Of a DNA stretch of 64,000 nt, positions 2,890-54,237 are shown in pieces. The notes beneath the pieces were generated by a model. It was not told where the DNA came from, made no database searches, and saw only the letters and a program-made list of their open reading frames with translations. Each line of letters starts with the position of its first letter. Within the stretch, counting starts at the first letter, position 1. This stretch comes from Gemmatimonadales bacterium (GTDB lineage Bacteria > Gemmatimonadota > Gemmatimonadetes > Gemmatimonadales > GWC2-71-9). Both the position numbers and the translations under genes were made by a program. Location: positions 880-64,879 of the forward strand of contig DATLXS010000182.1 in NCBI GenBank assembly GCA_035575675.1, in the 5' to 3' direction.

Positions 2890-5086
<2,197 letters not shown>

Positions 5087-24255: not shown

Positions 24256-24290
24256 GTAGGGGCGCAGCATGCTGCGCCCCTACATTTTTT
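24256..24290 (+). terminator. Rho-independent terminator between convergent genes
   Basis: Perfect palindrome GTAGGGGCGCAGC/ATGC-centred/GCTGCGCCCCTAC (24256-24283) followed by ATTTTTT (24284-24290). Confidence 0.75.
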
Positions 24291-24337
24291 CCAACTCAGC
24301 GTCCTTTCCAACCCAGCGTCCTCGACTCCCCGGTGTC

Positions 24338-28810: not shown

Positions 28811-29990
<1,180 letters not shown>

Positions 29991-37751: not shown

Positions 37752-39158
37752 ATGCGATATCTGTCGACCAGGCTGGCGATGCCGGTGCTCCTCGCCGGCT
37801 GCGCCTCAGCGGGTGCACGGACGACGACCGCGGCCGCACCCCCACAACCCGCCGCGCCAGCCGCGGCGGCCACACAGGATGCGGGCATCGGGCCCCAGTA
37901 TCCATCGACCTATCAGCGCCATCCCAATCCTCCGGTGCTGATCCGCAATGCCACGATCATGACGGCGGCGGGACAGGAGATTCAGGGCGGCTCAATTCTG
38001 TTCCGTGACGGCCGGATCGTCGCGGTGGGCGCGAACGTCACGGCGCCGACCGACGCGACGATCGTCGACGGCACGGGCAAGTGGGTGACGCCGGGCGTGA
38101 TCGACACGCACTCGCACATCGGCGTCTACGCCGCACCCGGCACGTTCGGGGAATCGGACGGCAACGAGGCCACGAGCCCGGTGACGGCCGAGGTGTGGGC
38201 GGAGCATTCGTTCTGGCCGCAGGATCCGCAGATCCCGCTCGCCATCGCGGGCGGTGTCACGACGATCCAGGCGCTCCCGGGGTCCGCGAATCTCATCGGC
38301 GGACGCAGCGCGGTGTTGAAGCTCGTCCCGGCGCGCTCGGTGCAAGAGATGAAGTTCCCCGGCGCGCACTACGGGCTGAAAATGGCGTGCGGTGAGAATC
38401 CCAAGCGCGTGTATGGAAACCGCGGCGGTCCGTCGACGCGGATGGGCAACATGGCCGGCTACCGCGCGGCATTCATCGCCGCTCAAGCCTATCGCCAGAA
38501 GTGGGACAAGTGGAACAAGGATCACCAGGGCGATCCGCCGGAGCGCAATCTGCGGAACGAGTCGCTCGCCGAGGTGCTGCGCGGCAACATCTACGTGCAG
38601 AACCACTGCTACCGCGCGGACGAAATGATGCAGATGCTCGATCTCGCCCATGAGTTCGGGTTCAAGATCCGCTCGTTCCACCACGCGGTGGAGGCGTACA
38701 AGATCGCCGACGTGCTGGCGCGCGAGGGCACGGCGGTGTCGATCTGGTCGGACTGGTGGGGTTTCAAAGAAGAGGCGATGGACGGGATCTACGAGAACGC
38801 CGCGCTGGTGCAGCAGGCGGGTGGGCGCGTGGTGATCCACTCCGATGACGCATCCGGCATTCAACGGCTCAATCAGGAGGCGGCAAAGGCGATGTATCAC
38901 GGCCGGCGCGCCGGAATTCCCATCACGCGGGACCAGGCGGTGCGCTGGTTCACCGCCAACCCGGCCTGGGTGCTCGGCCTCGACTCGATCGTCGGGTCGC
39001 TCGAGCCCGGCAAGATGGCCGATGTCGTGCTCTGGTCGGCCGATCCGCTTTCCGTCTATGCCCGCGCGATTCAGGTCTACAACGACGGCTGGCTCGTCTA
39101 CGACCGCAACGATCCGGCGCATCAACCAAGAACCGACTTCACGCTGGGGCAGCCATGA
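37752..39158 (+). CDS. Amidohydrolase-family lipoprotein (metal-dependent, HxH intact)
   Basis: 468 aa. Lipobox LLAGC. TPGVIDTHSHIG metal motif and a C-terminal ...PGKMADVVLWS pattern. Confidence 0.8.
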   Translation: MRYLSTRLAMPVLLAGCASAGARTTTAAAPPQPAAPAAAATQDAGIGPQYPSTYQRHPNPPVLIRNATIMTAAGQEIQGGSILFRDGRIVAVGANVTAPTDATIVDGTGKWVTPGVIDTHSHIGVYAAPGTFGESDGNEATSPVTAEVWAEHSFWPQDPQIPLAIAGGVTTIQALPGSANLIGGRSAVLKLVPARSVQEMKFPGAHYGLKMACGENPKRVYGNRGGPSTRMGNMAGYRAAFIAAQAYRQKWDKWNKDHQGDPPERNLRNESLAEVLRGNIYVQNHCYRADEMMQMLDLAHEFGFKIRSFHHAVEAYKIADVLAREGTAVSIWSDWWGFKEEAMDGIYENAALVQQAGGRVVIHSDDASGIQRLNQEAAKAMYHGRRAGIPITRDQAVRWFTANPAWVLGLDSIVGSLEPGKMADVVLWSADPLSVYARAIQVYNDGWLVYDRNDPAHQPRTDFTLGQP

Positions 39159-40363
39159 TCGCCTTCCTGCTTGCCCAGACGATCGCGATCACCGGGGGCA
39201 CGGTGTATCCGGTTTCGGGTCCGAAGATCGAAAACGCCACGGTGCTGATCCGTGATGGCCGGATTGCCGCCGTCGGAGCGACCGTGGCCGTGCCGGCAGG
39301 TGCGACGCGCATCGATGCATCCGGCAAGTGGGTAACACCCGGCTTCATCGATGGCGCGGGTCAGATGGGATTGCGGGAGATTGGCGCGGTCGACAATACG
39401 AGTGAGTACACCTTCCGGGGCAACGACGTCGCGGCTGCCTTCAACGTGCTCGAAGGCGTCAATCCGGCGTCCGCGCTCATCGCCGTGAACCGGATGGAAG
39501 GGATCACCACCACCCTCGCGGTGCCCAACGGCAATCTGATTTGGGGCCAGGCGGTGTTGATCGATCTCGATGGCGCGACGATCGAGGCGATGCGGGTGAA
39601 ATCACCCACCGCGATGGTCGCCGATTTGAGCGAAGGGTCCAAGGCCGCGGGCGGCGGCTCCCGCGCGGGCGTGGCGCAACGGCTGCGCCGCGTACTCGAT
39701 GACGCGCGCGAATACGCGACGCGGCGTGCCGATTATCGCCGCGCGCAGATCCAGCCGCTCAGCGCGAGCGCGGCGGACCTCGAGGCGCTGCAGCCGGTGC
39801 TGCGTGGTGAGCTGCCGCTGCTCGTGGTTGCGAACCGCCGCAGCGATATCGAGACCGCGCTGCGCATCGCCAAGGAGTACAAGCTGCGGCTGATTCTCGC
39901 GGGGGTCGCCGAGGGGTGGATGATCGCGAGCGAGATCGCGGCGGTGGGGGTGCCGGTGCTGGTCGAGCCGCTCGACAACATTCCGAGCTACGACGCGCTC
40001 GGCATCCGCTACGAGAACGCGCCGTTGCTCGCGAAGGGCGGCGTGAAGGTCGCGCTGATGGAGACGGCGACCGAGAATACCAGAGACCTGCGGCAGCAGG
40101 CAGGCAACGCCGTTGCGAACGGGATGCCGTGGGAGCAGGCGTTGCGGGCCGTGACGCTCACACCCGCCGAGATCTTTGGCGTGGCGGATCGGTACGGATC
40201 ACTGGACGCGGGGAAAGTTGCGAACGTCGTCGTCTGGACCGGTGATCCCTTCGATTTCTCGACGGGGGTCGAGCACGTATTCATACGGGGCAAAGACATT
40301 CGGTTGCGGAGCAGACAGACGGAGTTGCTGGAGAGGTATAAGACGCTGCCGCCGAAGTACTAG
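39155..40363 (+). CDS. Amidohydrolase-family paralog lacking the HxH metal motif
   Basis: 402 aa. Same fold (TPGFIDGAGQMG where HxH is expected; ..GKVANVVVWTGDP). ATGA overlap with the upstream paralog. No signal peptide from the only available start. Confidence 0.7.
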   Translation: MIAFLLAQTIAITGGTVYPVSGPKIENATVLIRDGRIAAVGATVAVPAGATRIDASGKWVTPGFIDGAGQMGLREIGAVDNTSEYTFRGNDVAAAFNVLEGVNPASALIAVNRMEGITTTLAVPNGNLIWGQAVLIDLDGATIEAMRVKSPTAMVADLSEGSKAAGGGSRAGVAQRLRRVLDDAREYATRRADYRRAQIQPLSASAADLEALQPVLRGELPLLVVANRRSDIETALRIAKEYKLRLILAGVAEGWMIASEIAAVGVPVLVEPLDNIPSYDALGIRYENAPLLAKGGVKVALMETATENTRDLRQQAGNAVANGMPWEQALRAVTLTPAEIFGVADRYGSLDAGKVANVVVWTGDPFDFSTGVEHVFIRGKDIRLRSRQTELLERYKTLPPKY

Positions 40364-40776
40364 GCGGTAACAGGCGGGATTGGGCGGTAACGGGCGGTAG
40401 GTGGCGAACCCACCTGCCGCTTGTTTTTGTCGATTGCGGCATACAATCGCCACACCAACGTCCCTGCATGATTCCGCAGGCGTTCAATCGTTTGCCACGC
40501 CTCGTCTGACATCAACTCCAGGTCCTTGGCGAGTCTCAACGCGACAGATAACTCAGACAATGAACCGAGAGCGATGTCGAGGTAACGCCTGAACTCGGCG
40601 GATCCCCGTTTCGCCGATCCTTCTGCGATGTTGGCGACGACAGAGAAAGCCGCACGTCGGGACTGCGAAGTTAGTCCGTAGAGCTCATGCTTTGGGAAAG
40701 TCGCGGTAATCCGATAAACATCCAGAGTCAGTTCGTAAGAAAGCTTCCATGCTTGAAAGCGCTCATAGGGGAGCAT
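40360..40776 (-). CDS. Four-helix-bundle protein (23S rRNA intervening-sequence protein / Avd-like family)
   Basis: 138 aa. FQAWKLSYELTLDVY..FPKHELYGLTSQSRRAAFSVVANIAEGSAKRGSAEFRRYLDIALGSLSEL matches the TIGR02436/PF05635 pattern. The C-terminal tail (..GSPPTARYRPIPPVTA) is read from array A. Visibly lower G+C than its neighbours. Confidence 0.85.
   Translation of the reverse strand: MLPYERFQAWKLSYELTLDVYRITATFPKHELYGLTSQSRRAAFSVVANIAEGSAKRGSAEFRRYLDIALGSLSELSVALRLAKDLELMSDEAWQTIERLRNHAGTLVWRLYAAIDKNKRQVGSPPTARYRPIPPVTA
40363..40429 (+). repeat. GGCGGTAnnn 10-bp iteron array ending in a terminator hairpin (array A)
   Basis: GGCGGTAACA GGCGGGATTG GGCGGTAACG GGCGGTAGGT starts on the last base of the TAG stop. 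The last unit forms stem GCGGTAGGTGG-CGAAC-CCACCTGCCGC followed by TTGTTTTTG. Confidence 0.9.
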
Positions 40777-40844
40777 CAGTGGATCGTAGCGTTCAGTCTG
40801 ACAAGCGGGTTACTCAATCGAACGCATGTGGGCACAAGAAAATT

Positions 40845-40878
40845 CCGCCTGTTGCCGCCTTTTGCCGCCCATTACCGT
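40845..40878 (-). repeat. 10-bp iteron array B (C-rich on + strand)
   Basis: CCGCCTGTTG CCGCCTTTTG CCGCCCATTA CCGTC. On the minus strand it reads TGA-GACGGTAATG GGCGGCAAAA GGCGGCAACA GGCGG, starting directly after the stop of the 40880-41680 gene. Confidence 0.85.
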
Positions 40879-40879
40879 C

Positions 40880-41680
40880 TCAGCGTCTCGACCAGACGAG
40901 TATCGCTCCGCAAGGACTCAAATAACCTGAGTACTGGACGGGTACACCCTCGGGTCCGGGATATACTTCCAGCGCTTCGATATTGAATGGGTTGACGAGG
41001 TCATCGAGGCTGAGTCCACCGCTAGCCGTGCCGCCGGGCTGCAGCAAGACACCGTCGAAAACGACGCTGGGGTTACATTTTCCGCGAAAGAACATCGTGT
41101 TCGCGGCTCGCATGGTGACTGTACATTGCAAGCCGGGACCGCCTTGTGAAGGGCCCCGCTGCTGTCCCCCGCAAGTGACGCGCACTCCAGACATCCCATG
41201 AAGTAGGTCAGTAAGGTGGAGGGGATCCCGCTTGTCGATTTCGTCGCGGGTGAGGAAATGTCCAAACCCCTCCTGTCTGCGTCTGTAAAACCCGGCGTCC
41301 GCCAAGTATGGCAACCGTCTCTCGATTTCCTTCGCTACGACCGTAACGGTGTCGAGAGTTATCGGGTTCGAAGGCAAGCTCAGCGATACGCGTGCCGTGA
41401 AGGCTGAACTGAAAAGAAAGGGTTTGCTTAGACTGATCGGATAACCGATCCTACTGATTAGCAGGCGATACTCACCGAGGCGCGGAATGCTGAAGGTGAA
41501 CTGACCGTCCGAGCTTGTGACTAGAGACTTCATCGCCGTGCCCGCGCTATCGAGGAGAAGGATGCGTGCACCGACGATGGGTTTTCCGGACACACTGTCC
41601 AGCACCGTCCCGGCGAGGACCTGTGCTTCAGCGGGATGCGCGAGCAATCCGAGTGTCAGCACGCAAACGGAGAGTCGCAT
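40880..41680 (-). CDS. CarboxypepD_reg-like + TonB-plug-like domain protein (no barrel)
   Basis: 266 aa. Signal peptide MRLSVCVLTLGLLAHPAEAQ, LAGTVLDSVSGKPIVGARILLLD..SDGQFTF..GEYRLLISRIGY, then plug-like LTDLLHGMSGVRV..VVFDGVLL..NIEALEVYPGP. Lower G+C than its surroundings. Confidence 0.6.
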   Translation of the reverse strand: MRLSVCVLTLGLLAHPAEAQVLAGTVLDSVSGKPIVGARILLLDSAGTAMKSLVTSSDGQFTFSIPRLGEYRLLISRIGYPISLSKPFLFSSAFTARVSLSLPSNPITLDTVTVVAKEIERRLPYLADAGFYRRRQEGFGHFLTRDEIDKRDPLHLTDLLHGMSGVRVTCGGQQRGPSQGGPGLQCTVTMRAANTMFFRGKCNPSVVFDGVLLQPGGTASGGLSLDDLVNPFNIEALEVYPGPEGVPVQYSGYLSPCGAILVWSRR

Positions 41681-41698: not shown

Positions 41699-41764
41699 GA
41701 AAAAGCGGCAGGGTCCGCAAACCCCTACCGCCCATTACCGCCTTGTACCGCCTGTTACCGCCTA
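41699..41764 (-). repeat. 10-bp iteron array C plus terminator hairpin downstream of rpmA
   Basis: The minus strand reads TAG-GCGGTAACAG GCGGTACAAG GCGGTAATGG GCGGTAGGG-GTTTGCGGA-CCCTGCCGC-TTTTT. The first 17 nt are identical to array A (TAGGCGGTAACAGGCGG) on the opposite strand. Confidence 0.9.
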
Positions 41765-44179: not shown

Positions 44180-44208
44180 AAGCTAGGAAAAGAGGAGACT
44201 TAGGTCAA
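44180..44208 (-). promoter_or_regulatory. Possible sigma-70-type promoter for the RNase E/G gene
   Basis: The minus strand reads TTGACC (44208-44203), a 17-nt spacer, then TAGCTT (44185-44180). It overlaps the acyl-CoA dehydrogenase stop and would give a ~150-nt structured leader. Confidence 0.25.
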
Positions 44209-45431
44209 TCGATCAGACCGCCGAGCAACTGCCGCGCAATCACGACGCGCTGGATCTCGCTCGTTCCCTCGCCGATCTCGCAGATCTTGGCGTCCCGCAT
44301 CATGCGCTCGACCGGGTACTCGGTGGTGTAGCCGTACCCGCCATGCAGCTGCACGGCCTTCGTTGTGGCGCGCATGCACAGCTCGGAAGCGTAGAGCTTG
44401 GCCATCGCTGCTTCCTTCTTGAACGGATGGCCCTGTTGTTTGAGCCAGGCGGCATGATATACGAGCTGCTTGGCGGCTTCGATCTCGGTCGCCATGTCGG
44501 CCAGCGCGAAATGCACGCCCTGGAAGCTCGCGATCGGCCGGCCGAACTGCTTGCGGGTGGACGTATACGCCAGACACTCGTCCAACGCTCCCTCGGCCAA
44601 CCCGAGCGACAGGGCGGCGATGCCGATCCGGCCGCCGTCGAGCGTGTGGAGAAACTGCCGGAAGCCGTTGTTCACTGGTCCGAGCACATTTTCCTTCGGG
44701 ACGATCGCGTCCTGAAAGATCAGCTCACGGGTGTCCGATGCCCGCCAGCCCAGCTTGTCTTCTTTTTTGCCTGACAGGACGCCGCGGTTCTTCGGTAGCT
44801 CGGCAGAGGACGCGTGGCCGATCCCCACGCGCTTCGCCTCGTCGAGGTCGCACGTGTCTTTGCTGACAATGAAGGCCGTGATCCCGTGCGTGCGTTTGGC
44901 GGTCGGATCGGTGCGCGCGGTGACGCAGAAGATCTCGCCGACGCCGGCGTGGGTGATGAAGATCTTCGAGCCGTTGAGGACGTAGTGGTCGCCTTTGTCG
45001 ACCGCGGTCGTCTTGGTGCCGCCCGCGTCCGAGCCCGCGCCCGGCTCCGTGAGGCCAAAACCGCCCAGGACCTTCCCGGGCGCGAGCAAGGGTACGAAGC
45101 GGCGCTTCTGCTCGTCGGTGCCGAAGTCCACGATCGGCGACGTGCCGAGCGTGGTGTGGGCGCTGACGGTGATGGCGTGACTCGCATCGACTTTCGCAAG
45201 CTCATGGATCACGGTGATGTAGGACAGATAATCCATCCCCGACCCGCCCAACTCCTCCGCCCACGGAATCCCGAACAGCCCGAGCTCCGCCATCCGTTTG
45301 ATGTTGTCCCAGGGGAAGCGGCTGTCGAGATCGTATTGGCGGGCGGTGGGTTTGACGACGTTCCGGGCGAAGTCTCGCACCATCTCGCGAACCTGGAGAT
45401 GGTGGTCGGAGAAGTAGAGGCTATCGTGCAT
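44205..45431 (-). CDS. Acyl-CoA dehydrogenase
   Basis: 408 aa. ACAD pattern ..[10 protein letters not shown].., ..QFG.PIASFQ.. and C-terminal ..YEGTSEIQ-like ([15 protein letters not shown]). Confidence 0.9.
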
Positions 45432-45443
45432 GCAGGAAAATAC

Positions 45444-45487
45444 GACGGTAAGGGACGGTAAAGAAGCGACGGTAAAGGACGGTAAGG
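45444..45487. repeat. GACGGTAAnG iteron array, single arm
   Basis: GACGGTAAGG GACGGTAAAGAAGC GACGGTAAAG GACGGTAAGG fills the recQ-stop to acyl-CoA-dehydrogenase-start spacer. C-rich in the sense of both flanking genes. Confidence 0.85.
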
Positions 45488-45488
45488 G

Positions 45489-46616
45489 TCACACCTCGCC
45501 GAAGTGTTGGAGAATGATCGCGCGGTGGTTCCGGCGCGCCTCGACGTACCGCCGCATCGCGGGCGCAATGTTGCCCCACGCGAGATCCTCCCTTCGCCAC
45601 AACACCAGACATTCGGCTGCCCTGCCGTCCCTGCCGCCCCTGCCGGCCTCTTGGTAGTAGGCCTCCAACGTGGGCGGGGGACCCCAATGCAGCACCTGCC
45701 GAACGTCCGGCTTGTCGATGCCCATGCCGAACGCGCTCGTCGCGACGATCACACGCACCTGATCGGTGAGGAACGCCCGTAATACACGCCGGCGCATGCC
45801 GGGACTGAGACCGGCGTGATAGGGGGCCGCGCGCACACTCGACCGCAGGAGCGCGCGCGCGACGAGCTCGGTCAGGCGGCGGGTTGGCGTGTAAATGAGC
45901 GACGCTCCTGCCCCGGTGCGGACGCGCTGGCGGATCGCCGCGAAGCGCTCGCGATCATCTCGCACGCGACAGACACGCAAGTCGAGATTGGGACGATCGA
46001 ACGACGTCACCACGACCTCGGCATCTGGCATGCGCAGTACGTGCAGGATGTCGGTGCGAGCGGCCGGAGTCGCGCTTCCCGTCAGGGCAATCGTCGGGGG
46101 CCGTCCGAGCGCCGCGCGGAACACGCCGAGGCGCCGGTAGACCGGCCGGAATTCGTTGCCCCATTCGGCGATGCAGTGCGCCTCGTCGATCGCGAGCAGC
46201 GACACCCGCGTGCCGGCTGCTACGAGGCGTCGCGTCAGCGATGCCAATCGCTCCGGCGCGCAGTACAGCAGCGCGAGCCGCCCCGCGGTCGCCGCGTCCA
46301 GGATGGTGCGCCGCTGGGTGGCATCGAGCTGGCTGTTCACGTAGGCGGCCGCGATGCCCCGGCGTCGCAGCGCGCCGACTTGATCCTGCATCAGCGAGAT
46401 CAAGGGCGACACGACGAGCGTCAGGCCGGCGTCGAGCAGCGCGGGGACCTGGTAGCAGAGCGACTTCCCCGCCCCAGTGGGGAGTACGGCGAGGACGTTC
46501 CGGCCGGCGAGCAGCGGGCCCAGCACTCTGAGCTGATGGACGCGGAAGCGGGCGTGACCGAACCGTTCCTTGAGGATTGTGCGCGCGGCCTCGAGTCCCA
46601 CGGTGCAGGTCGGCAT
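45489..46616 (-). CDS. RecQ-family helicase core, lacking Zn-binding/WH/HRDC domains
   Basis: 375 aa. Motifs LAVLPTGAGKS, DEAHC, TATA-like LTGSATP and YYQEAGRGGRDG. Ends ..AIILQHFGEV* exactly where RecQ proteins begin the Cys4 zinc cluster. Confidence 0.8.
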   Translation of the reverse strand: MPTCTVGLEAARTILKERFGHARFRVHQLRVLGPLLAGRNVLAVLPTGAGKSLCYQVPALLDAGLTLVVSPLISLMQDQVGALRRRGIAAAYVNSQLDATQRRTILDAATAGRLALLYCAPERLASLTRRLVAAGTRVSLLAIDEAHCIAEWGNEFRPVYRRLGVFRAALGRPPTIALTGSATPAARTDILHVLRMPDAEVVVTSFDRPNLDLRVCRVRDDRERFAAIRQRVRTGAGASLIYTPTRRLTELVARALLRSSVRAAPYHAGLSPGMRRRVLRAFLTDQVRVIVATSAFGMGIDKPDVRQVLHWGPPPTLEAYYQEAGRGGRDGRAAECLVLWRREDLAWGNIAPAMRRYVEARRNHRAIILQHFGEV

Positions 46617-46687: not shown

Positions 46688-48826
46688 ATGCCTCCTCTAT
46701 TCTTCGCGACACTCATGCTGGTACAAACTGTGATCTATCCTCCCGCGCGCAAAGACGACGTTGTCGACGACTACCACGGGACCAAGGTTGCCGACCCCTA
46801 CCGCTGGCTCGAGGACGTCGACGCGCCGGAAACCCGCGGCTGGGTGGAAGCCGAGAATCGCGTCACATTCGCCTATCTCGAGCAGATCCCCGAGCGCGAG
46901 CGCATTCGGCGGCGGCTGACGGAATTGTGGGACTATCCGAAATACGGCGCGCCGTTCCAGAAGGGCGGACGCTACTTCTTCTTCAAGAATTCAGGTCTCC
47001 AGAACCAGGCGGTCCTGTACACGCAAAGCGCGCTCACCGCCGAGCCCGAAGTCCTGCTCGATCCCAACACACTGTCGGCGGACGGCACCGTCGCGCTGTC
47101 GATCCTCGCCTTCGCCGAGGACGGCAGGACGATGGTCTACGGCACGTCGGGGAGCGGCTCGGACTGGCAGGAATTCCGCGTGCGTGATGTCGCGACTCGG
47201 CAGGACCGGCCTGATCACCTGAAATGGATCAAGTTCTCGAGCGCGGCATGGACGCACGACGGCGCCGGATTCTTTTACAGCCGCTATCCAGAGCCCGCGC
47301 CGGGCGCCGATCCGCTGCTCGAGGTCAATCACAACCAGAAGGTCTATTACCACAAGCTGGGCACCGACCAGTCCACCGACCGCCTGGTGTACGAACGGCC
47401 CGATCATCCCGACTGGGGCTTCGGCGTCGAAGTGAGCGCCGACGGTCGCTACGCCGTCTACACGGTCTGGCTGGGCACCGACCGCCGCAATCGCGTCTAC
47501 TATCAAGACCTGGGCGACGCCAGGCATCCGCGGCTCGACGCACCCGTCGTCCGCTTGCTCGATGCCTTCGACGCGGCCTACGGTTTCGTCGGCAACACGG
47601 GCCCCGTCTTCTATTTCCAGACCGATAACGGCGCGCCGCGTGGCCGCATCGTCGCCGTCGATGTTCGTCATCCCGCACCGATCGCCTGGAAAGAAGTCGT
47701 GCCGCAGGCGCCGGACGTGATTGAAGGCTCGCAGATTGTCCACAACACGTTTGTCGTGCGCTACCTCCACGACGCGTACTCGCAGCTGCGCCTCTTCGCG
47801 CTCGACGGCAAGCCGGCCGGCGACGTCGGGCTGCCGACGCTGGGCTCGATCGTGCAGGTGACCGGCGAGCCTCGCGACACGGAGATGTTCTACGCGTTCA
47901 CGTCGTTCCTGTATCCGACCACGATCTTCCGGCACGACTTCACGACCGGCACCTCCACCGTCTTCAAGGCACCGGAGATTGCCTTCGACCCCGCGAAGTA
48001 CGAAACGGTGCAGGTGTTCTACCACAGCAAGGACGGGACGCGGGTTCCGCTGTTCCTGACCTACAAGAAGGGCGTAAAGCAGGATGGCTCGAACCCGACG
48101 TACCTGTACGGCTACGGCGGCTTCAATGTCAACATGACGCCGGGCTTTTCGATCGGCGTGCTCGCGTGGCTCGAGATGGGCGGCGTGTACGCGCAGGCGG
48201 TGCTGCGCGGCGGATCGGAGTACGGGGAAGAGTGGCATCAGGCGGGGATGCTCGACCGCAAGCAAAACGTGTTCGACGATTTTATCGCCGCCGCGGAGTA
48301 TCTGATCGCCGCGCGCTACACGGCACCGCCCAAACTGGCGATCGGCGGGGGCTCGAATGGCGGGTTGCTGATCGGTGCCGTGTTGAATCAGCGGCCCGAA
48401 TTGTTCGGCGCCGCCCTGCCGGCCGTCGGCGTGATGGACATGCTGCGCTTCCACAAGTTCACGATCGGCTGGGCGTGGGTGACCGAATACGGCTCGGCCG
48501 ACAGCGTCGCGCAGTTCCCGTTTCTGCTGCGGTACTCGCCGATCCACAATATGAAGCCGGGGACGCACTATCCCGCGACCTTGATCACGACCGCCGATCA
48601 CGACGACCGCGTGGTGCCGGGGCACTCGTTCAAATACGCGGCGACGCTCCAGACGGCGCAGGGCGGCCCCGAGCCGGTGCTGATACGGATCGAGACCAAG
48701 GCCGGCCACGGCGCCGGCAAGCCGACCGCCAAAGTGATCGAGGAGCAAACCGATCGCTGGGCGTTCCTCGTTCACACGCTCCACATGCAGCTACCGGCAC
48801 AGACTTCGTCCGCGCCGAGGCCCTAG
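46688..48826 (+). CDS. Prolyl oligopeptidase (S9A)
   Basis: 712 aa from ATG 46688. DPYRWLED N-terminus, catalytic GGSNGGLL, and ..DDRV.P.HS.K.. The ORF-track start at 46577 adds an implausible Arg/Cys-rich leader. Confidence 0.9.
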   Translation: MPPLFFATLMLVQTVIYPPARKDDVVDDYHGTKVADPYRWLEDVDAPETRGWVEAENRVTFAYLEQIPERERIRRRLTELWDYPKYGAPFQKGGRYFFFKNSGLQNQAVLYTQSALTAEPEVLLDPNTLSADGTVALSILAFAEDGRTMVYGTSGSGSDWQEFRVRDVATRQDRPDHLKWIKFSSAAWTHDGAGFFYSRYPEPAPGADPLLEVNHNQKVYYHKLGTDQSTDRLVYERPDHPDWGFGVEVSADGRYAVYTVWLGTDRRNRVYYQDLGDARHPRLDAPVVRLLDAFDAAYGFVGNTGPVFYFQTDNGAPRGRIVAVDVRHPAPIAWKEVVPQAPDVIEGSQIVHNTFVVRYLHDAYSQLRLFALDGKPAGDVGLPTLGSIVQVTGEPRDTEMFYAFTSFLYPTTIFRHDFTTGTSTVFKAPEIAFDPAKYETVQVFYHSKDGTRVPLFLTYKKGVKQDGSNPTYLYGYGGFNVNMTPGFSIGVLAWLEMGGVYAQAVLRGGSEYGEEWHQAGMLDRKQNVFDDFIAAAEYLIAARYTAPPKLAIGGGSNGGLLIGAVLNQRPELFGAALPAVGVMDMLRFHKFTIGWAWVTEYGSADSVAQFPFLLRYSPIHNMKPGTHYPATLITTADHDDRVVPGHSFKYAATLQTAQGGPEPVLIRIETKAGHGAGKPTAKVIEEQTDRWAFLVHTLHMQLPAQTSSAPRP

Positions 48827-48837
48827 GAGACGATCGC

Positions 48838-49581
48838 ATGCCCAAGGTGCACTGTTCGCTGTGTAACGCTCCCGTGGAGGGCCGCACGCTCGCGTCCCCG
48901 CAGAAGTTGGAAAACCGCATCATCGACCTGATAAAAAAAGACCGGCCGGAATGGGAAGGGACGCGTGGCATCTGCGCCAACTGCCTCGAGACCTATCGCG
49001 CCAAGAAGTTCGTGACCTATCTCGAAGCCGAGTATCAGAAGCTGTCGGAGCTCGAGCACTCAGTGGTCTCGAAGATCACGCGCCGCGGGCGGGTCAGTAA
49101 GCTCGTGCATCAGGACATGGAGACGTCGATGACGTTCGGCGAGCACGTGGCCGACAAGGTGGCGCAGTTTGGGGGAAGCTGGCGCTTCATCGGGCTCTTT
49201 GGAGGCATCCTGCTCGTGTGGATGGTGGTGAACGCCTGGGTGCTCGCGACCCATCCCTTCGACCCCTACCCCTTCATTCTCTTGAACCTCGTGCTGTCGA
49301 CGCTCGCGGCGCTCCAGGCGCCGGTGATCATGATGAGCCAGAACCGCCAGGCGCACAAAGACCGGATGCAGGCGAATCAGGATTACGAGATCAACTTGAT
49401 GGCGGAGATTGAAATCCGGGATCTACACGACAAGCTGGATTCGCTGCGATTCAAGCAATGGCACGAGCTGTGGCACATTCAAAAGCGGCAAATCGAACTG
49501 CTCGAGCATCTCTGCGCGAAGGGTGCGGATCCCGAGCTTAAGGCTCCCGCGCCGAGTCCCTATGTGCCCCCTGAACTCTGA
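48838..49581 (+). CDS. DUF1003-family membrane protein with N-terminal zinc ribbon
   Basis: 247 aa. AGGAGA RBS at 48825-48830. CSLC..CANC ribbon, then FGGSWRFIGLF..PYPFILLNLVLS..APVIMMSQNRQ..D (DUF1003 core). Confidence 0.75.
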   Translation: MPKVHCSLCNAPVEGRTLASPQKLENRIIDLIKKDRPEWEGTRGICANCLETYRAKKFVTYLEAEYQKLSELEHSVVSKITRRGRVSKLVHQDMETSMTFGEHVADKVAQFGGSWRFIGLFGGILLVWMVVNAWVLATHPFDPYPFILLNLVLSTLAALQAPVIMMSQNRQAHKDRMQANQDYEINLMAEIEIRDLHDKLDSLRFKQWHELWHIQKRQIELLEHLCAKGADPELKAPAPSPYVPPEL

Positions 49582-49652
49582 CGGTAGGCAAGGCGACGGT
49601 AGATGAAACGACGGTAGGTAAGGCGACGGTAGATAAAACGACGGTAGATACC
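49579..49652 (+). repeat. GACGGTAG 15-bp iteron array (left arm)
   Basis: T-GACGGTAGGCAAGGC GACGGTAGATGAAAC GACGGTAGGTAAGGC GACGGTAGATAAAAC GACGGTAGATACC. It begins inside the TGA stop of the DUF1003 gene and shows an alternating 30-bp higher-order repeat. Confidence 0.9.
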
Positions 49653-49692
49653 ATTTTGAGTTGTGGTTGATCGCCTCCCGAGATACTCCCTC

Positions 49693-50061
49693 ATGCTCGC
49701 GCATGAGAGAATCCACGCTTGGAAGTTGTGTCACGAGCTGGTGCTGGCTGTATACGATGCAACGACATCGTTTCCTAAACATGAACTCTACGGGTTGACC
49801 TCCCAAGCTCGGCGCGCCGCTTTTTCTGCGGCGGTCAACATTGTCGAAGGCTCCGCCAAGCGTGGCCCCGCCGAATTTCGACGATTCCCGGATATGAGTG
49901 TTGGTTCGCTTGCGGAGCTCGCCTACACGTTGCGTGTGGCGAAGGACCTGGGGTTCATTGATGACGAGCGCTGGCGGTCATTAGAACAACGTCGAAGACA
50001 AGCAGGCATGATGACGTGGAGACTCTACTCGGCGGTTGCGAGAGCGGCGAGAAGAGTGTGA
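49693..50061 (+). CDS. Four-helix-bundle protein (23S rRNA intervening-sequence protein / Avd-like family), paralog 2
   Basis: 122 aa from ATG 49693 (MLAHERIHAWKLCHELVLAVY..FPKHELYGLTSQARRAAFSAAVNIVEGSAKRGPAEFRRF). Aligns end to end with the 40360-40776 protein at roughly 60% identity by eye. Confidence 0.85.
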   Translation: MLAHERIHAWKLCHELVLAVYDATTSFPKHELYGLTSQARRAAFSAAVNIVEGSAKRGPAEFRRFPDMSVGSLAELAYTLRVAKDLGFIDDERWRSLEQRRRQAGMMTWRLYSAVARAARRV

Positions 50062-50063
50062 CA

Positions 50064-50132
50064 CTTACCGTCGCCTTATCTACCGTCCTTTACCGTCGTA
50101 TTATCTACCGTCGTATTATCTACGGTCGTCTC
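50064..50132 (-). repeat. CTACCGTC iteron array (right arm, inverted)
   Basis: CTTACCGTC GCCTTATCTACCGTC CTTTACCGTC GTATTATCTACCGTC GTATTATCTACGGTC. The array ends 1 nt before the TCA (minus-strand TGA stop, 50133-50135) of the 50133-50450 gene. Confidence 0.9.
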
Positions 50133-50450
50133 TCACCCCGCATCTTTCCAGTCAATCGCATAGCTGCGCCCACATTCGTGGCACTTGGCGTCCTTGCGAT
50201 TCTCGGGGACGACGGTCCGCGCGTGACATCCGGGGCACACCAGGTGTGGCTGGCGCACCACACTCCAGGCGCTGGGTCGCTCGCTCCGAATCTCGAGATC
50301 CGCTTTTGGGATCCGGATCTCCACGTGGTGCACATCCAGCACCACGAAGTCCTTGGGCGGATTTTCGACGACGCGATACCAGGCGCCGCGCCGGAGTCCC
50401 TGTCCTTCCGCACGATCACCGCGACTACGAGCCCAACCGATGTCAGCCAT
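50133..50450 (-). CDS. Hypothetical protein with C-terminal zinc ribbon
   Basis: 105 aa from MADIGW (ATG 50450, 8-nt overlap with the upstream GroES-like gene). C-terminal CPGC..(13)..CHEC. Confidence 0.45.
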   Translation of the reverse strand: MADIGWARSRGDRAEGQGLRRGAWYRVVENPPKDFVVLDVHHVEIRIPKADLEIRSERPSAWSVVRQPHLVCPGCHARTVVPENRKDAKCHECGRSYAIDWKDAG

Positions 50451-50808
50451 GCTTCCCTCGCACAAGGACGAGAATCGCCGCCTGTGGCACGACGAGATAC
50501 GTCTTACCCTCGAATGTGATTTCTACGGCCGCTTTCCGGAAAAAGAGCGCGTAGTCTCCCGCCTCCGCCTGCGTCGGCAAATACTTCACCTCAGCGCCGT
50601 GAATCTTCCACGGCTCCTCGTCCATGCTCGCCGGCTCGGGCATCGGGGTGCCGGGGCCGGTGGCGACGATGCGGCCGCCCTGCACCTGGCGGCCCTCGAT
50701 GGCGGAGGGAGGGAGATAGAGTCCGACGTTCGTGCGCTCCTCCCCCTCCTCGGGCGAGATGAGCACACGATCGCCGACGACGATCAAGCGCTTCGGGTCT
50801 TCCGGCAC
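50443..50808 (-). CDS. GroES/Cpn10-like protein (atypical, with insert)
   Basis: 121 aa. LIVVGDRVLISPEEGEERTNVGLYLP..A....QGGRIVATGPG ... GDYALF ... YLVV....ILV follows the GroES beta-barrel pattern. There is no groEL nearby. Confidence 0.55.
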   Translation of the reverse strand: MPEDPKRLIVVGDRVLISPEEGEERTNVGLYLPPSAIEGRQVQGGRIVATGPGTPMPEPASMDEEPWKIHGAEVKYLPTQAEAGDYALFFRKAAVEITFEGKTYLVVPQAAILVLVRGKHG

Positions 50809-50944: not shown

Positions 50945-52168
50945 ATGCAAGAGGTAACGAACGCCGGGCAGACCCAACAGTGGAGCTTCGTGCTTCAGCA
51001 ACTGGTGCAGTGGGTTGTCGCGGGGTTTACGTGGATCGTCCCCATCCAGGCGCGCATCCTCGATTTCGTGCTGCGGGGTGAGTCCTTCTGGAGTCTCGCC
51101 GCGACGTCGGTGCTGCTGTTCCTGCCGGCGATGGCGGTCATCGGCGGATTGTGGCTGACGATGGCCGCGGTGTACACGATCCCGTTCCGGCTCGGTCGGT
51201 CGGTGACGCTCCTGCAGTCGGTCGCGCTGGCGTGGTGGGACGTGCTGCGCATGTCGTGGTTCTACTGGGCGGGCCTGGTGCGCTTCCTGATCGTCCTCAT
51301 CGGCTGGGTCTGGGGCCTGATCCAGTTGAGCGGGAGGCTCATCGTCGGCACGGTGAAGGGCGCGATCACGTCGCCGCTTGCCGTCCTGGACGCGACGTCG
51401 CGCCGTCCGGGCGTGCCGTGGCCCGCATTCTTCATGTTGGTGTTCTGGTCGATGATCGAGGCCACAATTTTCACCTTCACGCTGAAGCCGACGGCGAGTG
51501 AGTTGCTCGGCGAGCTCACCGGCTACGAGGTCAACGGGTTCGCGTTCATGATGTTGCTCTGGCTGTTCCTGTGGGTTCTGGTCGCGGGCAGCTTCGCGTG
51601 CATTCAAGTCTTGAACGAGGCCATCAAGAGCAAAAAGTACGGGCAGATTGTCTCGATGGTGGCCATCGAAATCGCCGTGGCGATGTTCGAGGTGCTGTTC
51701 CTGTATCGCGAGCTGGTCGACGCCATGACGCCGTGGCTCGCGCAGCAGGGCGTTCAGCTCACAGCCATTGAGACGATCGGACTCGCGTTCTTTGCCTGGG
51801 TCGGCGTGCGCGGCATGACGTGGTTCCTGTTCGGCCGCTTCGGCGCGCCGGCGATGATCGCGCTCCTCGGCCGCCAGGGGTTGGTCGTCGAGGGTGGAGC
51901 CGGCCACGGGCCCGCGCCGCAGATGGCCGACTACTGGAAGGGGCCGATCGCGGCCCTCAAAGCGGAACGCGAATGGTTTCGCAAGGAGGCGCGGGAGGTG
52001 TTCGAGCTGGCGTCGCTCCCGGTTCTGCAGGTGGTTGCCGCGGGGCTGAACTTCCTGTTCGTCGTCTTCACGGGCCGCGGCCACTTTACGTTGCCGTTCA
52101 AGTCGATCGACGAGGTGCTCGCGGCCACGCATTTCCCCGCTCGCGTGAGCGGCGAGGTGGCGCGATGA
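50945..52168 (+). CDS. Polytopic inner-membrane protein, unknown family
   Basis: 407 aa with about 8-9 hydrophobic, Trp/Phe-rich segments (e.g. FWSLAATSVLLFLPAMAVIGGLWL, WFYWAGLVRFLIVLIGWVWGLI, GFAFMMLLWLFLWVLVAGSF). I recognise no motif. Confidence 0.6.
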   Translation: MQEVTNAGQTQQWSFVLQQLVQWVVAGFTWIVPIQARILDFVLRGESFWSLAATSVLLFLPAMAVIGGLWLTMAAVYTIPFRLGRSVTLLQSVALAWWDVLRMSWFYWAGLVRFLIVLIGWVWGLIQLSGRLIVGTVKGAITSPLAVLDATSRRPGVPWPAFFMLVFWSMIEATIFTFTLKPTASELLGELTGYEVNGFAFMMLLWLFLWVLVAGSFACIQVLNEAIKSKKYGQIVSMVAIEIAVAMFEVLFLYRELVDAMTPWLAQQGVQLTAIETIGLAFFAWVGVRGMTWFLFGRFGAPAMIALLGRQGLVVEGGAGHGPAPQMADYWKGPIAALKAEREWFRKEAREVFELASLPVLQVVAAGLNFLFVVFTGRGHFTLPFKSIDEVLAATHFPARVSGEVAR

Positions 52169-52914
52169 AGCGCGTGGTCCTGGCGCTCAGCCTCCTGGCG
52201 GTCGCGTGCGCGCCGAAAGCTGGTGGGCCGCCGCCGCGGTCGACGCTGGTGGTGGGACTCGATGTCTCGGGCTCGTTCCGCAACAGCGGGCGCTTCGACG
52301 ACGCGATGCGCTACGCCGCGTTGTACATCTACGGGCACGTCAACGGCCTCGGCGGTCTCAAGCAGGCGACCGACGTCTTTGTCGGATCGCTCGGCGGCGA
52401 CGTCGTGGGCCAGCCCAAGACATTCCACCCGATTCAGGACTTGGGCGGCAAGACGCCGGCGGAGATCGAGCGCGACCTGCGCGCCTGGTTCCCTGACGTC
52501 GATGCCCTCACCGACTTCAACGCCTTTTTCCAGCGCGTGGCGGTGCACATCAAGCGCCAGAACCTGGTGCTGGCACCGCTCAATATCGTGATGTTCTCGG
52601 ACGGCCTGCCCGATCTTCCGGGCGCGCGCCGCATGCAGCCCAAAGAGCTCTATGGGAAGGTTGATCTGAGTCCGATCGAGTACCTGTCGCGCAACGTGAC
52701 GGTCCGGCTCCTGTACGCCGACCCACCGATCGCGCAGAACTGGGAAAGGCTCGTCCCCCGCAATCGCGTGAAGATCTGGACGCAGGACGCCCAGGTCATG
52801 GATGGGTGGCACCGTCACGAGGTGGCGGGTGTCCCGATGGAGCGGCAGGACTCGCTCTGGAGTTGGACGGAGCAGATTGTCGACTTCCGCGTCCGCCGCG
52901 GCAAAATTCTCTAA
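52165..52914 (+). CDS. vWA-like (MIDAS-motif) lipoprotein
   Basis: 249 aa. ATGA overlap with the membrane protein gene. Lipobox LLAVAC. LVVGLDVSGSF (DxSxS) and IVMFSDGLPD are characteristic of von Willebrand A domains. Confidence 0.6.
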   Translation: MKRVVLALSLLAVACAPKAGGPPPRSTLVVGLDVSGSFRNSGRFDDAMRYAALYIYGHVNGLGGLKQATDVFVGSLGGDVVGQPKTFHPIQDLGGKTPAEIERDLRAWFPDVDALTDFNAFFQRVAVHIKRQNLVLAPLNIVMFSDGLPDLPGARRMQPKELYGKVDLSPIEYLSRNVTVRLLYADPPIAQNWERLVPRNRVKIWTQDAQVMDGWHRHEVAGVPMERQDSLWSWTEQIVDFRVRRGKIL

Positions 52915-52918
52915 AAAC

Positions 52919-53013
52919 GACGGTAAGGGACGGTAGGTGAAACGACGGTAAGGGACGGTAAACCCTTACCGTCGTTTACCGTCGTAGTACCTACCGTCGC
53001 ATTACCTACCGTC
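52919..53013. repeat. Back-to-back inverted GACGGTA arrays with no cargo ('empty' hairpin)
   Basis: GACGGTAAGG GACGGTAGGTGAAAC GACGGTAAGG GACGGTAAAC | CCTTACCGTC GTTTACCGTC GTAGTACCTACCGTC GCATTACCTACCGTC. It sits between convergent genes, and the TAG stop of the methyltransferase (53006-53008) lies inside the array. Confidence 0.9.
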
Positions 53014-53806
53014 GATTCTCCAGGCTCACCGTCCGTATCCACTCGGCGGGATCCGTCGGCGCGTGAGGTACCAGCCCCCGCCACACCTTGTAGCGCAGCT
53101 TCCGCAAGCCGGTCAGCGCACGCCCATCCGCAAACGGAATCAGTCGCCGCACTCGTCGCGCCAGGGCCAGCCGCGCGGCGCGCCACCGCGCGCCGTCGCC
53201 CGGCCGATATTGCGCCCACCCGATCGAGCCGCAGAGACCCGCAGGACCGAATTGGTCTGAGGCGAGCAGCTCCTCGGCAAACACGCGCACCGGCCCCTCA
53301 AAGCTGTGCAGTACGTCATGCATCGCGACGATCGCACCCGGCGCCAGGTGCGGCCGAAAGAGGTCGATATCCTCCTTCGCGCCGCGGTACGTGTGGTCGC
53401 CGTCGATCCACAGGAACCGGATCGACCGAGTCCACCCCTGCGCGAGGTCACGGGAATAGGCGCGATGCGCCTCGACAGTTCGCTCGACGCCTGCGTCGCG
53501 CAGCGACGCCTGGAAGTCATCCCACGACGATTGCTGCGAGCCATGTCCAAAGTCTGTGACGGCGGGGGCGGAGTGCGGATCGACGCTTACGACGGGGCCG
53601 AGGCCATAGTGCTGCGCGATGGAGGCCAGCCCAACGGTGGACTTTCCCTTGTAGCTCCCGATCTCGAGGATCGTCCCGCGGGCGGGGGCGCACGCCGCCG
53701 CGAGCGCCAGGAACCGCGCTTCGCGCTCCGTTAAAAACCCCGGAGCGGCCCGGACGCGTGTCCAGGCCTCCTCAACGGCTTGTCCAAGATCAGACGGCGT
53801 GGTCAG
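53006..53806 (-). CDS. Class I SAM-dependent methyltransferase (Methyltransf_24-like)
   Basis: GTILEIGSYKGKSTVGLA (motif I), VVSVDPH and LWIDGDHTY. Homology begins near FLTEREARFL. There is no ATG/GTG/TTG in frame between 54079 and the domain. CTG at 53806 would make a CTGA overlap with the bacilliredoxin stop. Confidence 0.65.
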   Translation of the reverse strand: MTTPSDLGQAVEEAWTRVRAAPGFLTEREARFLALAAACAPARGTILEIGSYKGKSTVGLASIAQHYGLGPVVSVDPHSAPAVTDFGHGSQQSSWDDFQASLRDAGVERTVEAHRAYSRDLAQGWTRSIRFLWIDGDHTYRGAKEDIDLFRPHLAPGAIVAMHDVLHSFEGPVRVFAEELLASDQFGPAGLCGSIGWAQYRPGDGARWRAARLALARRVRRLIPFADGRALTGLRKLRYKVWRGLVPHAPTDPAEWIRTVSLENRR

Positions 53807-54237
53807 CAGTGCTGCTCGAATGCCGCGGTCAGGTCGGCCGCGATGTCGCGCGCGTTCCGCCCTTCGATGTTGCGCCGCTCCAGCATGAACACGATCCGCC
53901 CGTCCTTGAACAGGGCGATCTGCGGCGACGACGGTGCGTACCCGGTGAAGTAGCTGCGGGCGCGTGCCGTCGCGTCGGCATCCTGCCCCGCGAATACGGT
54001 GACGAGACGCGCGGGACGGCGATCGTGTTGGATCGCCAGCGCCGCCGCGGGCCGGGCATTGCGGGCGGCACAGCCGCACACCGAGTTCACCACGACGAGG
54101 GTCGGCGCGCGTTCGCTGGCGAGCACGCCGTCCACCTCTTCAGGCGTCCGCAGCTCTTCGAAGCCCAGACGGGTCAGCTCCTCCCGCATCGGGCGGACCA
54201 TCTCGGGATCGTACATCGGGACGTTCAGATTGCGCAT
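53803..54237 (-). CDS. Bacilliredoxin (BrxA/BrxB, DUF1094 family)
   Basis: 144 aa. TLVVVNSVCGCAARNARPAA (CGC redox motif), TVFAGQD, YFTGY.PSSP and C-terminal LTAAFEQHC. Matches B. subtilis YphP/YqiW along its whole length, from memory. Confidence 0.8.
   Translation of the reverse strand: MRNLNVPMYDPEMVRPMREELTRLGFEELRTPEEVDGVLASERAPTLVVVNSVCGCAARNARPAAALAIQHDRRPARLVTVFAGQDADATARARSYFTGYAPSSPQIALFKDGRIVFMLERRNIEGRNARDIAADLTAAFEQHC

Follow-up and report, generated by a model that had tools for sequence, protein, structure and literature searches.

A four-helix-bundle gene between inverted tandem arrays in a Gemmatimonadales genome: a candidate intervening-sequence-type cassette outside ribosomal RNA

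The element described here occupies positions 49579-50135 of a 64,000 nucleotide (nt) stretch of contig DATLXS010000182.1 from a Gemmatimonadales bacterium, the whole of which is referred to below as the window. It is exactly the whole gap between the stops of two convergent genes, one for a DUF1003 protein and one for a zinc-ribbon protein. Within this gap a single gene of the PF05635 family lies between two arrays of short tandem units, the second inverted with respect to the first. The data lead us to favour, with moderate confidence, the reading that this is a complete accessory cassette of the intervening sequence (IVS) type located outside ribosomal RNA (rRNA), in which the PF05635 gene sits in the loop of a tandem-array inverted repeat and the arms would form an RNase III-type stem in read-through RNA. 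The parts of the cassette are the following.

49579..49581, plus strand: TGA stop of the DUF1003 gene, overlapping repeat unit 1 by 2 nt.
49580..49652, plus strand: 5' arm of five tandem 15-nt units with the core GACGGTAG, G-rich and purine-rich, with stop codons in two frames.
49653..49692, plus strand: inner 5' region of 40 nt, between the 5' arm and the open reading frame (ORF).
49693..50061, plus strand: four-helix-bundle ORF of 122 amino acids (aa), PF05635/TIGR02436.
50064..50132, plus strand: 3' arm of five inverted units, C-rich on the gene's strand, beginning 2 nt past the ORF stop.
50133..50135, minus strand: TGA stop closing the zinc-ribbon gene 50133..50465, which is convergent, and abutting the last unit of the 3' arm.

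The initial annotation had described this region as a second cassette with the same architecture as a copy near position 40360, carrying a different unit in its arms, and both the layout and the difference in units were confirmed. Exact copies of GACGGTAG start at 49580, 49595, 49610, 49625 and 49640, which confirms the 15-nt period, and this octamer occurs 10 times in the whole window against 0.98 expected, 10 of 10 being inside such arrays. The downstream array does consist of five inverted units, but not of one repeated sequence as had been supposed. The order is TTACCGTC, CTACCGTC, TTACCGTC, CTACCGTC, CTACGGTC, with only two exact CTACCGTC, TTACCGTC twice and CTACGGTC once, and the units start at 50065, 50080, 50090, 50105 and 50120 (spacing 15, 10, 15 and 15 nt). 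The upstream gene, ORF 48166..49581, was assigned to DUF1003 (PF06210, E 1.6e-40), and the interior of the cassette contains one ORF only. The Rfam search detected no rRNA in the window and no known RNA family in the region of the cassette, which lies outside helix 9, 25 or 45 of 23S rRNA. No intrinsic terminator (GC-rich hairpin followed by a T run) was found in 49300-50400. A canonical terminator of this kind is present elsewhere in the window, at about 24260-24292, indicating that the genome also uses ordinary intrinsic terminators.

The two arms can pair over a considerable length. The best gapless arm-arm pairing covers 42 nt with 86% complementarity, and the RNA duplex of the arms alone was calculated at -85.7 kcal/mol, compared with -35.8 +/- 5.0 kcal/mol for shuffled sequences (z = -10). 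The fold of the whole cassette (571 nt) closes the arms as well, with z = -6.2. The initial annotation had named pairing no better than shuffled controls as the outcome that would speak against it; the pairing proved to be far better. The antisense RNA of the arms gave a duplex energy nearly equal to that of the sense RNA.

The protein encoded at 49693-50061 is a clear member of the family named for the intervening-sequence protein of 23S rRNA (PF05635; E 4.4e-27, 94.8 bits, cutoff 33.8), and it also matched TIGR02436, 'four helix bundle protein', with 90.6 bits (cutoff 24). The AlphaFold model has four long helices (residues 2-24, 33-54, 64-85 and 91-121) with a predicted confidence (pLDDT) of 89.8. 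Its best Foldseek matches among PDB folds were 2GSC (TM 0.84-0.87) and 2RLD (TM 0.83), followed by Avd, the accessory protein of diversity-generating retroelements (DGRs), and a phmmer search matched 2GSC at 5e-19. The crystal entries 2GSC and 2RLD contain five chains each. Among intact orthologues the ratio of nonsynonymous to synonymous substitution rates (dN/dS) was 0.04-0.11, that is, the gene is under purifying selection, which indicates that the protein is functional where it is kept. An assignment to Avd itself was rejected, the scores being far under the cutoffs (NF033474, 17.5 against 80 bits; PF22296, 18.2 against 40 bits). No reverse transcriptase and no template or variable repeats were found in the cassette, the remaining window not having been screened for reverse transcriptases. 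Neither paralogue matched the PADLOC models for anti-phage defence, and no relatives were found in viral contigs.

The same build was found around the gene family at large. Species-representative genomes were scanned with both paralogues of the window, which returned 80 loci, 25 of them from Gemmatimonadales; L001 is a 98% orthologue of the window cassette. The 220 nt upstream of each gene were compared with the reverse complement of the 220 nt downstream, and the result was scored against shuffles. Complementarity of the flanks exceeded z = 4 in 62 of 77 family loci and z = 8 in 50 of the 77, whereas the neighbouring ORFs in the same loci, used as controls, exceeded these values in only 9 and 3 of 199 cases, respectively. 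Inverted tandem arrays flank the gene in at least eight phyla, including Chloroflexota, Acidobacteriota, Planctomycetota, Cyanobacteria, Bacteroidota, Verrucomicrobiota and others, and the gene-in-repeat-hairpin build is thus specific to the PF05635 family across many phyla and not local to the window. Two cultured strains are among the carriers, Nostoc punctiforme, whose plasmid pNPUN02 has a cassette (NPUN_RS35280) with GGAGTCA heptamer arms, and Gemmatirosa kalamazoonensis KBS708, whose cassette, at about 1007600-1007912 of NZ_CP007129.1, is built from GGGCAGGA units.

The unit is particular to each locus (for example AGCTNNT, GGAATGT, GAAGCCA, GGGGYTA, GAATTCA or GTGGATA), and there is no core common across phyla, but both arms of any one cassette always carry the same unit. 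Although the units diverge completely between lineages, the arms remain about 89% complementary (2335 of 2628 aligned positions). Units mostly repeat every 7 or 14 nt in cassettes outside Gemmatimonadales, and every 10, 15 or 20 nt in those of this order, with 8 nt also seen; an array contains 2 to about 9 units, typically 4-6. Within a cassette the arms agree in period (10 or 15 nt; Spearman 0.55, p = 0.006, uncorrected for phylogeny) but not in unit number. The 3' arm begins a median of 7 nt past the stop codon, and a median of 60 nt separates the end of the 5' arm from the ATG.

The orientation of the arrays is also stereotyped. In 63 of 69 cassettes scored the 5' arm contained more G than C, and the opposite was found in 4. 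Since the repeat is inverted, this G-rich-first polarity holds on both strands, and on either side the host strand that enters the cassette in the 5' to 3' direction passes into a G-rich tandem array. Stop codons are present in two to three frames of the outward-facing arrays in Gemmatimonadales and absent from the inward-facing orientation, a property that is not general outside this order. Outside Gemmatimonadales, cassettes were in sense orientation relative to co-directional neighbours in 34 cases and antisense in 2 (binomial p = 2e-8, from crude ORF calls).

A connection to rRNA was provided by Azospirillum lipoferum 4B (L161, a plasmid match with no annotated gene at this place), in which a family ORF lies inside a 23S rRNA gene (Rfam LSU at 1253-4451 of L161), about 1150 nt from its start. 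The insertion is in the region of helix 45, where ORF-containing IVSs have been reported (PMC4990558). Its arms, at 2406-2441 and 2839-2874, are 36 nt long and 86% complementary, the G-rich arm being 5', and they are built from the 14-nt direct units CAGAGGACGGATGA and CAGAGGACGGAGGA. The loop contains an intact family ORF in sense orientation. This insertion, the one rRNA-borne PF05635 IVS examined for the build of its arms, is thus a genuine 23S rRNA IVS with the same build as the window cassette. In ORF-containing IVSs the inverted repeats at the ends make up a stem that is cut by RNase III at its middle, with the ORF in the loop (PMC4990558).

The 23S rRNA IVSs of Leptospira and Coxiella burnetii ('S23p') resemble the window cassette in having a PF05635 protein encoded in the loop, complementary termini and a long stem, in the sense orientation of the ORF and in their sporadic distribution. 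The window cassette has the stable complementary termini with an ORF in the loop and the sporadic presence of an IVS. Unlike the rRNA IVSs, it lies between protein-coding genes and not in rRNA helix 9, 25 or 45, its arms are about 70 nt long compared with 28-36 nt, and it apparently has a promoter of its own.

Comparison of orthologous sites showed that the cassette is polymorphic by insertion and deletion. A scan of metagenomes anchored on the neighbouring zinc-ribbon gene gave 80 orthologous loci on soil Gemmatimonadales contigs, where the gene order is GroES-like, zinc-ribbon and then, convergent to these, DUF1003 and prolyl oligopeptidase. Their states were as follows.

Empty site: 52 of 80 loci, together with L132, first scored as a 396-nt gap but likewise empty, its DUF1003 gene being frameshifted.
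Full cassette: 20 of 80 loci, one of them inverted (L087).
Internally truncated gene with the arms kept: 6 of 80 loci.
Arm remnants only: 1 of 80 loci (L149).

In the empty alleles the stops of the two genes overlap in a CTAG or CTAA tetramer, and there is neither an array nor a hairpin. The orthologous site thus has no hairpin of its own, which indicates that the arms arrive with the gene, and the truncated and arms-only remnants show that the interior of a cassette can be lost. Occupied loci are scattered in patches over a tree of the flanking genes, and loci with near-identical flanks can differ in state (for example L113 and L122, or L117 and L130). The presence of empty alleles contradicts fixation of the gene at every site, a pattern that would have spoken against an accessory cassette. 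A second inverted cassette was found in the genome set (L024). In two further loci, L106 and L107, identity to the window is 99% for the cassette and 98% for DUF1003 but only 88% for the zinc-ribbon gene and 92% for the GroES-like gene, and these mosaic flanks point to a recombination breakpoint at or next to the cassette. Close relatives thus differ through gain or loss of the cassette, inversion, internal deletion and recombination. Nor is the cassette the only part of the locus that varies in structure: in L114, L144, L148, L117, L157, L158, L006 and L008 the DUF1003 gene is absent and prolyl oligopeptidase is the neighbour, with or without a cassette.

The initial annotation had also suggested that array subtype and protein paralogue may co-vary. 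This was borne out across Gemmatimonadales, where the unit core follows the clades of the protein tree (GACGGTA, which includes the cassette at 49579-50135, GGCGGCG, GGCGGTC and GGCGGAG) and genomes with both protein lineages have both unit types. The other cassette of the window, with GGCGGTA units, encodes a protein 59% identical to that at 49693-50061, in agreement with the roughly 60% estimated by eye. Gene and arms therefore move together, as the agreement of unit type with the protein tree shows. Inheritance of both as one cassette is the simplest reading of this pattern, which does not by itself indicate that the protein recognizes the unit. The 3' end of DUF1003 (GACGTAGGG) resembles the unit, but a derivation of the arrays from the target is contradicted by the unit type following the protein clade, and the resemblance was judged coincidental. 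The name 'iteron' that had been given to the units was abandoned, because unit sequence, period and number vary between loci, and also inside single cassettes, while the protein is conserved and no replication gene is present.

The sequence between the 5' arm and the ORF suggests a promoter inside the cassette. In 24 orthologous cassettes two elements were conserved: the motif TTGA, N7, TTGA (at 49656-49659 and 49667-49670 in the window), at a level of 80% or more and some 20 nt ahead of the ATG, and a -10-like hexamer, which reads GATACT in the window (49682-49687) and precedes the ATG by 5 nt. No Shine-Dalgarno sequence was found before the ORF at 49693 or in these 24 cassettes. The paralogous group has a conserved inner 5' region of its own, with AATTGATGA and a TATTCA-type -10-like hexamer likewise 5 nt before the ATG. 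These features would fit a cassette-internal promoter producing a leaderless mRNA. A scan for the sigma-70 consensus gave nothing, and family genes outside Gemmatimonadales do have Shine-Dalgarno sequences. The element ATTTT..TTGTG, which had been noted directly after the upstream array of both window cassettes and taken as a hint of homology beyond the ORF and of a cassette promoter, is indeed in both, but it is absent from orthologues with 97-99% protein identity (the L001 group) and is not the conserved element. The idea of a promoter survives in altered form, with a different conserved inner 5' region in each group.

According to the IVS-type reading, RNA entering from the promoter of a neighbouring gene or of rRNA would zip the arms into a double-stranded stem of 40-70 bp, and host RNase III may cut this stem as it does in rRNA IVSs. 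Processing of the stem would remove or insulate the insertion at the RNA level and so cause little harm to the host transcript. With the G-rich arm first, the C-rich arm would not be exposed unpaired in read-through RNA, which could avoid loading of the termination factor Rho. Transcripts from the cassette's own promoter would lack the 5' arm and would expose the C-rich array directly behind the stop codon; Rho could load there, and termination before the neighbouring gene would be favoured. Tandem units may allow the arms to pair in several registers across the 440-nt loop, and at the DNA level inversion, as well as exchange with gene-less hairpins, could use the arms as stretches of homology.

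Several observations weigh against this reading. In the strand-specific wobble test G.U-compatible mismatches numbered 84 in the sense and 85 in the antisense direction, and this symmetry gives no specific support to selection on the sense RNA. In the orthologous GACGGTA group cognate arms paired no better than non-cognate arms (permutation p = 0.38), the score in this comparison being dominated by array length and a common core. Because mismatches are symmetric and cognate arms have no advantage, homogenisation at the DNA level stays a serious rival. No detectable arms were present in 15 of the 77 family members, and Nostoc PCC 7120 (pCC7120alpha, L164, 3776-4126) has kept only the downstream C-rich heptamer array, CCTCTGC. 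Comparison of filled and empty alleles (L113 with L122, L117 with L130) revealed no target-site duplication, and no mobility gene or transposase was found at occupied or empty orthologous sites. Furthermore, cleavage by RNase III at this cassette is extrapolated from rRNA IVSs, an own promoter, if present, would leave the gene's mRNA without the 5' arm, tandem units are not needed for a plain stem, and the argument from polarity is a rationale and not a test.

A different explanation, which we regard as possible although improbable on balance, works at the DNA level: the arms would be the terminal inverted repeats of a foldback or miniature inverted-repeat element, or substrates of recombination, kept alike by intramolecular template switching or gene conversion, and RNA pairing would be irrelevant. 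The strand-symmetric mismatch types, the inversions between the arms (L024, L087), the recombination breakpoints at the cassette (L106, L107), the insertion and deletion polymorphism with its arms-only remnant and the gene-less hairpins with the same units nearby all fit such an element. It has, however, neither a transposase nor a target-site duplication, and the arms differ between copies in one genome, unlike ends recognized by a transposase. The 63 to 4 bias in polarity and the 34 to 2 bias towards sense orientation inside operons point instead to a constraint linked to transcription, and the same build occurs in rRNA, where excision at the RNA level is documented (PMC4990558).

The co-variation of unit type and protein clade could alternatively reflect recognition, in that a pentameric protein would bind the 4-6 flanking units, as DNA or single-stranded RNA, in the manner of iterons or of TRAP (the trp RNA-binding attenuation protein), with paralogue-specific autoregulation or mobility as the outcome. 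The typical 4-6 units of an array and the five chains of 2GSC and 2RLD would agree with this, as would the homologue Avd, which occurs in an RNA-protein complex with reverse transcriptase (PDB titles). Co-inheritance would be equally expected to produce the co-variation, though, and the protein is conserved while no unit core is common across phyla and the periods vary from 7 to 15 nt. Arrays hold anywhere from 2 to about 9 units, with no correlation between the arms, and the complementarity of the arms would be left without a reason. Binding of this kind is thus considered quite unlikely.

An equally doubtful alternative is that each array acts alone as a boundary of transcription or translation, the C-rich 3' array loading Rho and the purine-rich outer arrays providing stop codons to neighbouring genes that read inward, with complementarity as a by-product. 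The polarity of 63 against 4 would follow, as would the start of the 3' array at a median of 7 nt past the stop, the stop codons in two to three frames of the outward-facing (and none of the inward-facing) arrays in Gemmatimonadales, and the position of both neighbours' stops at the array edges. The single C-rich array kept in Nostoc PCC 7120 and a lone array in C-rich orientation between co-directional genes at 45444-45488 of the window are further points in its favour. On the other hand, independent insulators would not explain why both arms carry the same unit despite complete divergence of units between lineages, and the array stop codons are not general outside Gemmatimonadales.

It is very unlikely, in our estimation, that the arms, besides pairing, are footprints of insertion, in which both 3' ends of a broken or nicked target grew as a single short C-rich template was copied again and again, as in telomere healing or target-primed reverse transcription, although such copying would be expected to give the observed geometry, with each incoming host strand continuing into a G-rich array. 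If this were true, the template would be supplied by the 3' array, C-rich in RNA made from the cassette itself, and one process would give the tandem units, the inverted symmetry, a unit peculiar to each lineage and a polarity that is G-first almost everywhere. A polymerase or reverse transcriptase encoded at another place would in that case have the Avd-like pentamer as its cofactor, and the ORF-containing rRNA IVSs would be insertions of the same retro-cassette. The least tenable idea, that repeat hairpins are a general intergenic feature between which four-helix-bundle genes merely happen to lie, might draw on the gene-less hairpins (52916-53018, 35634-35719, 5220-5298) and lone arrays of the window, but it is extremely improbable given complementary flanks (z > 4) in 9 of 199 control ORFs against 62 of 77 family loci and an empty orthologous site without a hairpin, where the arms arrive with the gene.

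Among known systems other than the IVSs, the repetitive extragenic palindromic (REP) sequences of Proteobacteria, with the bacterial interspersed mosaic elements (BIMEs) and REPINs, resemble the elements described here, and especially the gene-less hairpins (such as 52916-53018), in being imperfect palindromes that follow gene 3' ends, where neighbouring genes converge or run in the same direction, and in possible roles in mRNA 3'-end stability or attenuation. REP sequences are conserved within a genome and tied to the RAYT transposase. The cassette differs from them in that its unit varies with the lineage of the locus, its arms are tandem arrays and a protein gene lies in the loop. Avd (4DWL, 8UB7) has a four-helix-bundle fold homologous to that of the cassette protein, with weak similarity by hidden Markov model, but inverted tandem arrays are not a feature of DGRs. 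Miniature inverted-repeat transposable elements (MITEs) and foldback elements are likewise short, insertion-polymorphic and bounded by inverted repeats, with gene-less derivatives, and foldback elements have tandem subrepeats inside their arms. The cassette differs from these in having no target-site duplication, ends that differ between copies and a conserved cargo gene under purifying selection, and we know of no transposase for it. Classification as a MITE or a transposon with terminal inverted repeats was rejected, since there is no target-site duplication and paralogous cassettes in one genome have different arms. The short tandemly repeated repetitive (STRR) sequences of heterocystous cyanobacteria are intergenic tandem heptamers. 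The heptamer arrays of cyanobacterial cassettes, GGGGCTA (L046), GGAGTCA (Nostoc punctiforme) and CCTCTGC (PCC 7120), are similar to these, a likeness drawn by description only, and to our knowledge STRR sequences have been described as repeats only, with no link to the PF05635 family or to inverted pairing.

The window contains a paralogous cassette and several further arrays, which are listed here.

40360..40882, minus strand: paralogous cassette (cassette 1) with GGCGG-type arms.
40845-40879, minus strand: 5' arm of cassette 1, GGCGG-type units.
40776..40360, minus strand: ORF of cassette 1, 138 aa, 59% identical to the protein of 49693-50061.
40363-40401, minus strand: 3' arm of cassette 1, GGCGGTAA units.
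41726..41764, minus strand: third GGCGGTA-type array, upstream of an ORF for a 266-aa secreted protein.
52916..53018, unstranded: gene-less hairpin of GACGGTAAGG / GACGGTAG+7 units, with arms of about 48 bp and a 4-nt loop (-65 kcal/mol, z -8.4 to -9.6).
35634-35719: gene-less hairpin of GGAATGAT/ATCATTCC units (z -6.3).
5220-5298: gene-less hairpin of the heptamers GCGAAAT/ATTTCGC (z -7.5), just past the stop of ORF 4145..5218.
45444-45488: lone GACGGTAAGG array of four units between the co-directional minus-strand ORFs 45489..46616 and 44205..45431.
29589-29624: lone GGCGGCGAAG array just before the ATG at 29625, its unit typical of the other Gemmatimonadales cassette clade.

The ORF of cassette 1 runs 16 codons into its own 3' array (138 compared with 122 aa), so that the array is translated, and it ends where the convergent gene 39155..40363 ends. 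Its 3' arm, 40363-40401, pairs with the third array, 41726-41764, at -77.8 kcal/mol, compared with -48.6 kcal/mol for the proximal 5' arm. This outer pair encloses the secreted-protein ORF (40880-41680 region) together with the four-helix-bundle gene, and the stronger outer pairing suggests an insertion into, or a duplication of, the 5' arm.

The hairpin at 52916-53018 lies between ORF 51820..52914 and, convergent with it, ORF 53006..54079, which has its stop inside the last unit; this hairpin is probably a cassette remnant or a landing pad. By analogy with the decay series at the zinc-ribbon site, the gene-less hairpins and lone arrays of the window may in general be remnants of cassettes or landing pads for exchange by homologous recombination. 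The hairpin at 35634-35719 shares sequence with the predicted 5' end of ORF 35624..37738, and the segment that the repeat would encode there resembles a signal peptide; in unit sequence this hairpin is similar to the arms of a cassette from Planctomycetota (L036, GGAATGT). On the transcribed strand the array at 45444-45488 is rich in C, and its vicinity contains no partner arm. A further hairpin candidate at 9609-9692 was dropped, its z being only -1.8.

Some individual loci deserve mention. On plasmid 1 of Gemmatirosa kalamazoonensis (L163) the G-rich 5' array is directly followed by a C-rich partner, forming a local hairpin upstream of the gene, and a second C-rich array comes after the stop, a three-array arrangement as in cassette 1 of the window. 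Upstream of the gene in Nostoc PCC 7120 (L164), an ORF whose product has a transposase-like end (by eye) abuts the gene at the place expected for the 5' arm. In two Gemmatimonadales genomes (L016 and L019, both at 3414-3713) the 3' arm of a paralogous cassette is directly followed by two tRNA-Ser genes on the opposite strand.

ORF-containing IVSs in 23S rRNA have been known for more than 30 years, and their origin, their mobility and the role of the 'S23p' protein are still unexplained (PMC4990558). The present results suggest that the rRNA IVSs represent a special case of insertion by a cassette of far wider occurrence, found between ordinary genes in at least eight phyla. What is new is the stereotyped build in protein-coding territory, with arms of inverted tandem units and the G-rich arm 5'; our literature search found no description of the PF05635 family flanked by inverted tandem arrays outside rRNA, nor of insertion polymorphism. 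For genome annotation, short arrays of this kind can be mistaken for other repeat classes, and they explain many odd C-terminal extensions and abutting stops around genes annotated as 'four helix bundle protein'. The polymorphism for insertion, inversion and decay in natural populations, where empty and filled alleles both exist, makes the old IVS puzzle testable, and Gemmatirosa kalamazoonensis and Nostoc punctiforme are available as cultured carriers.

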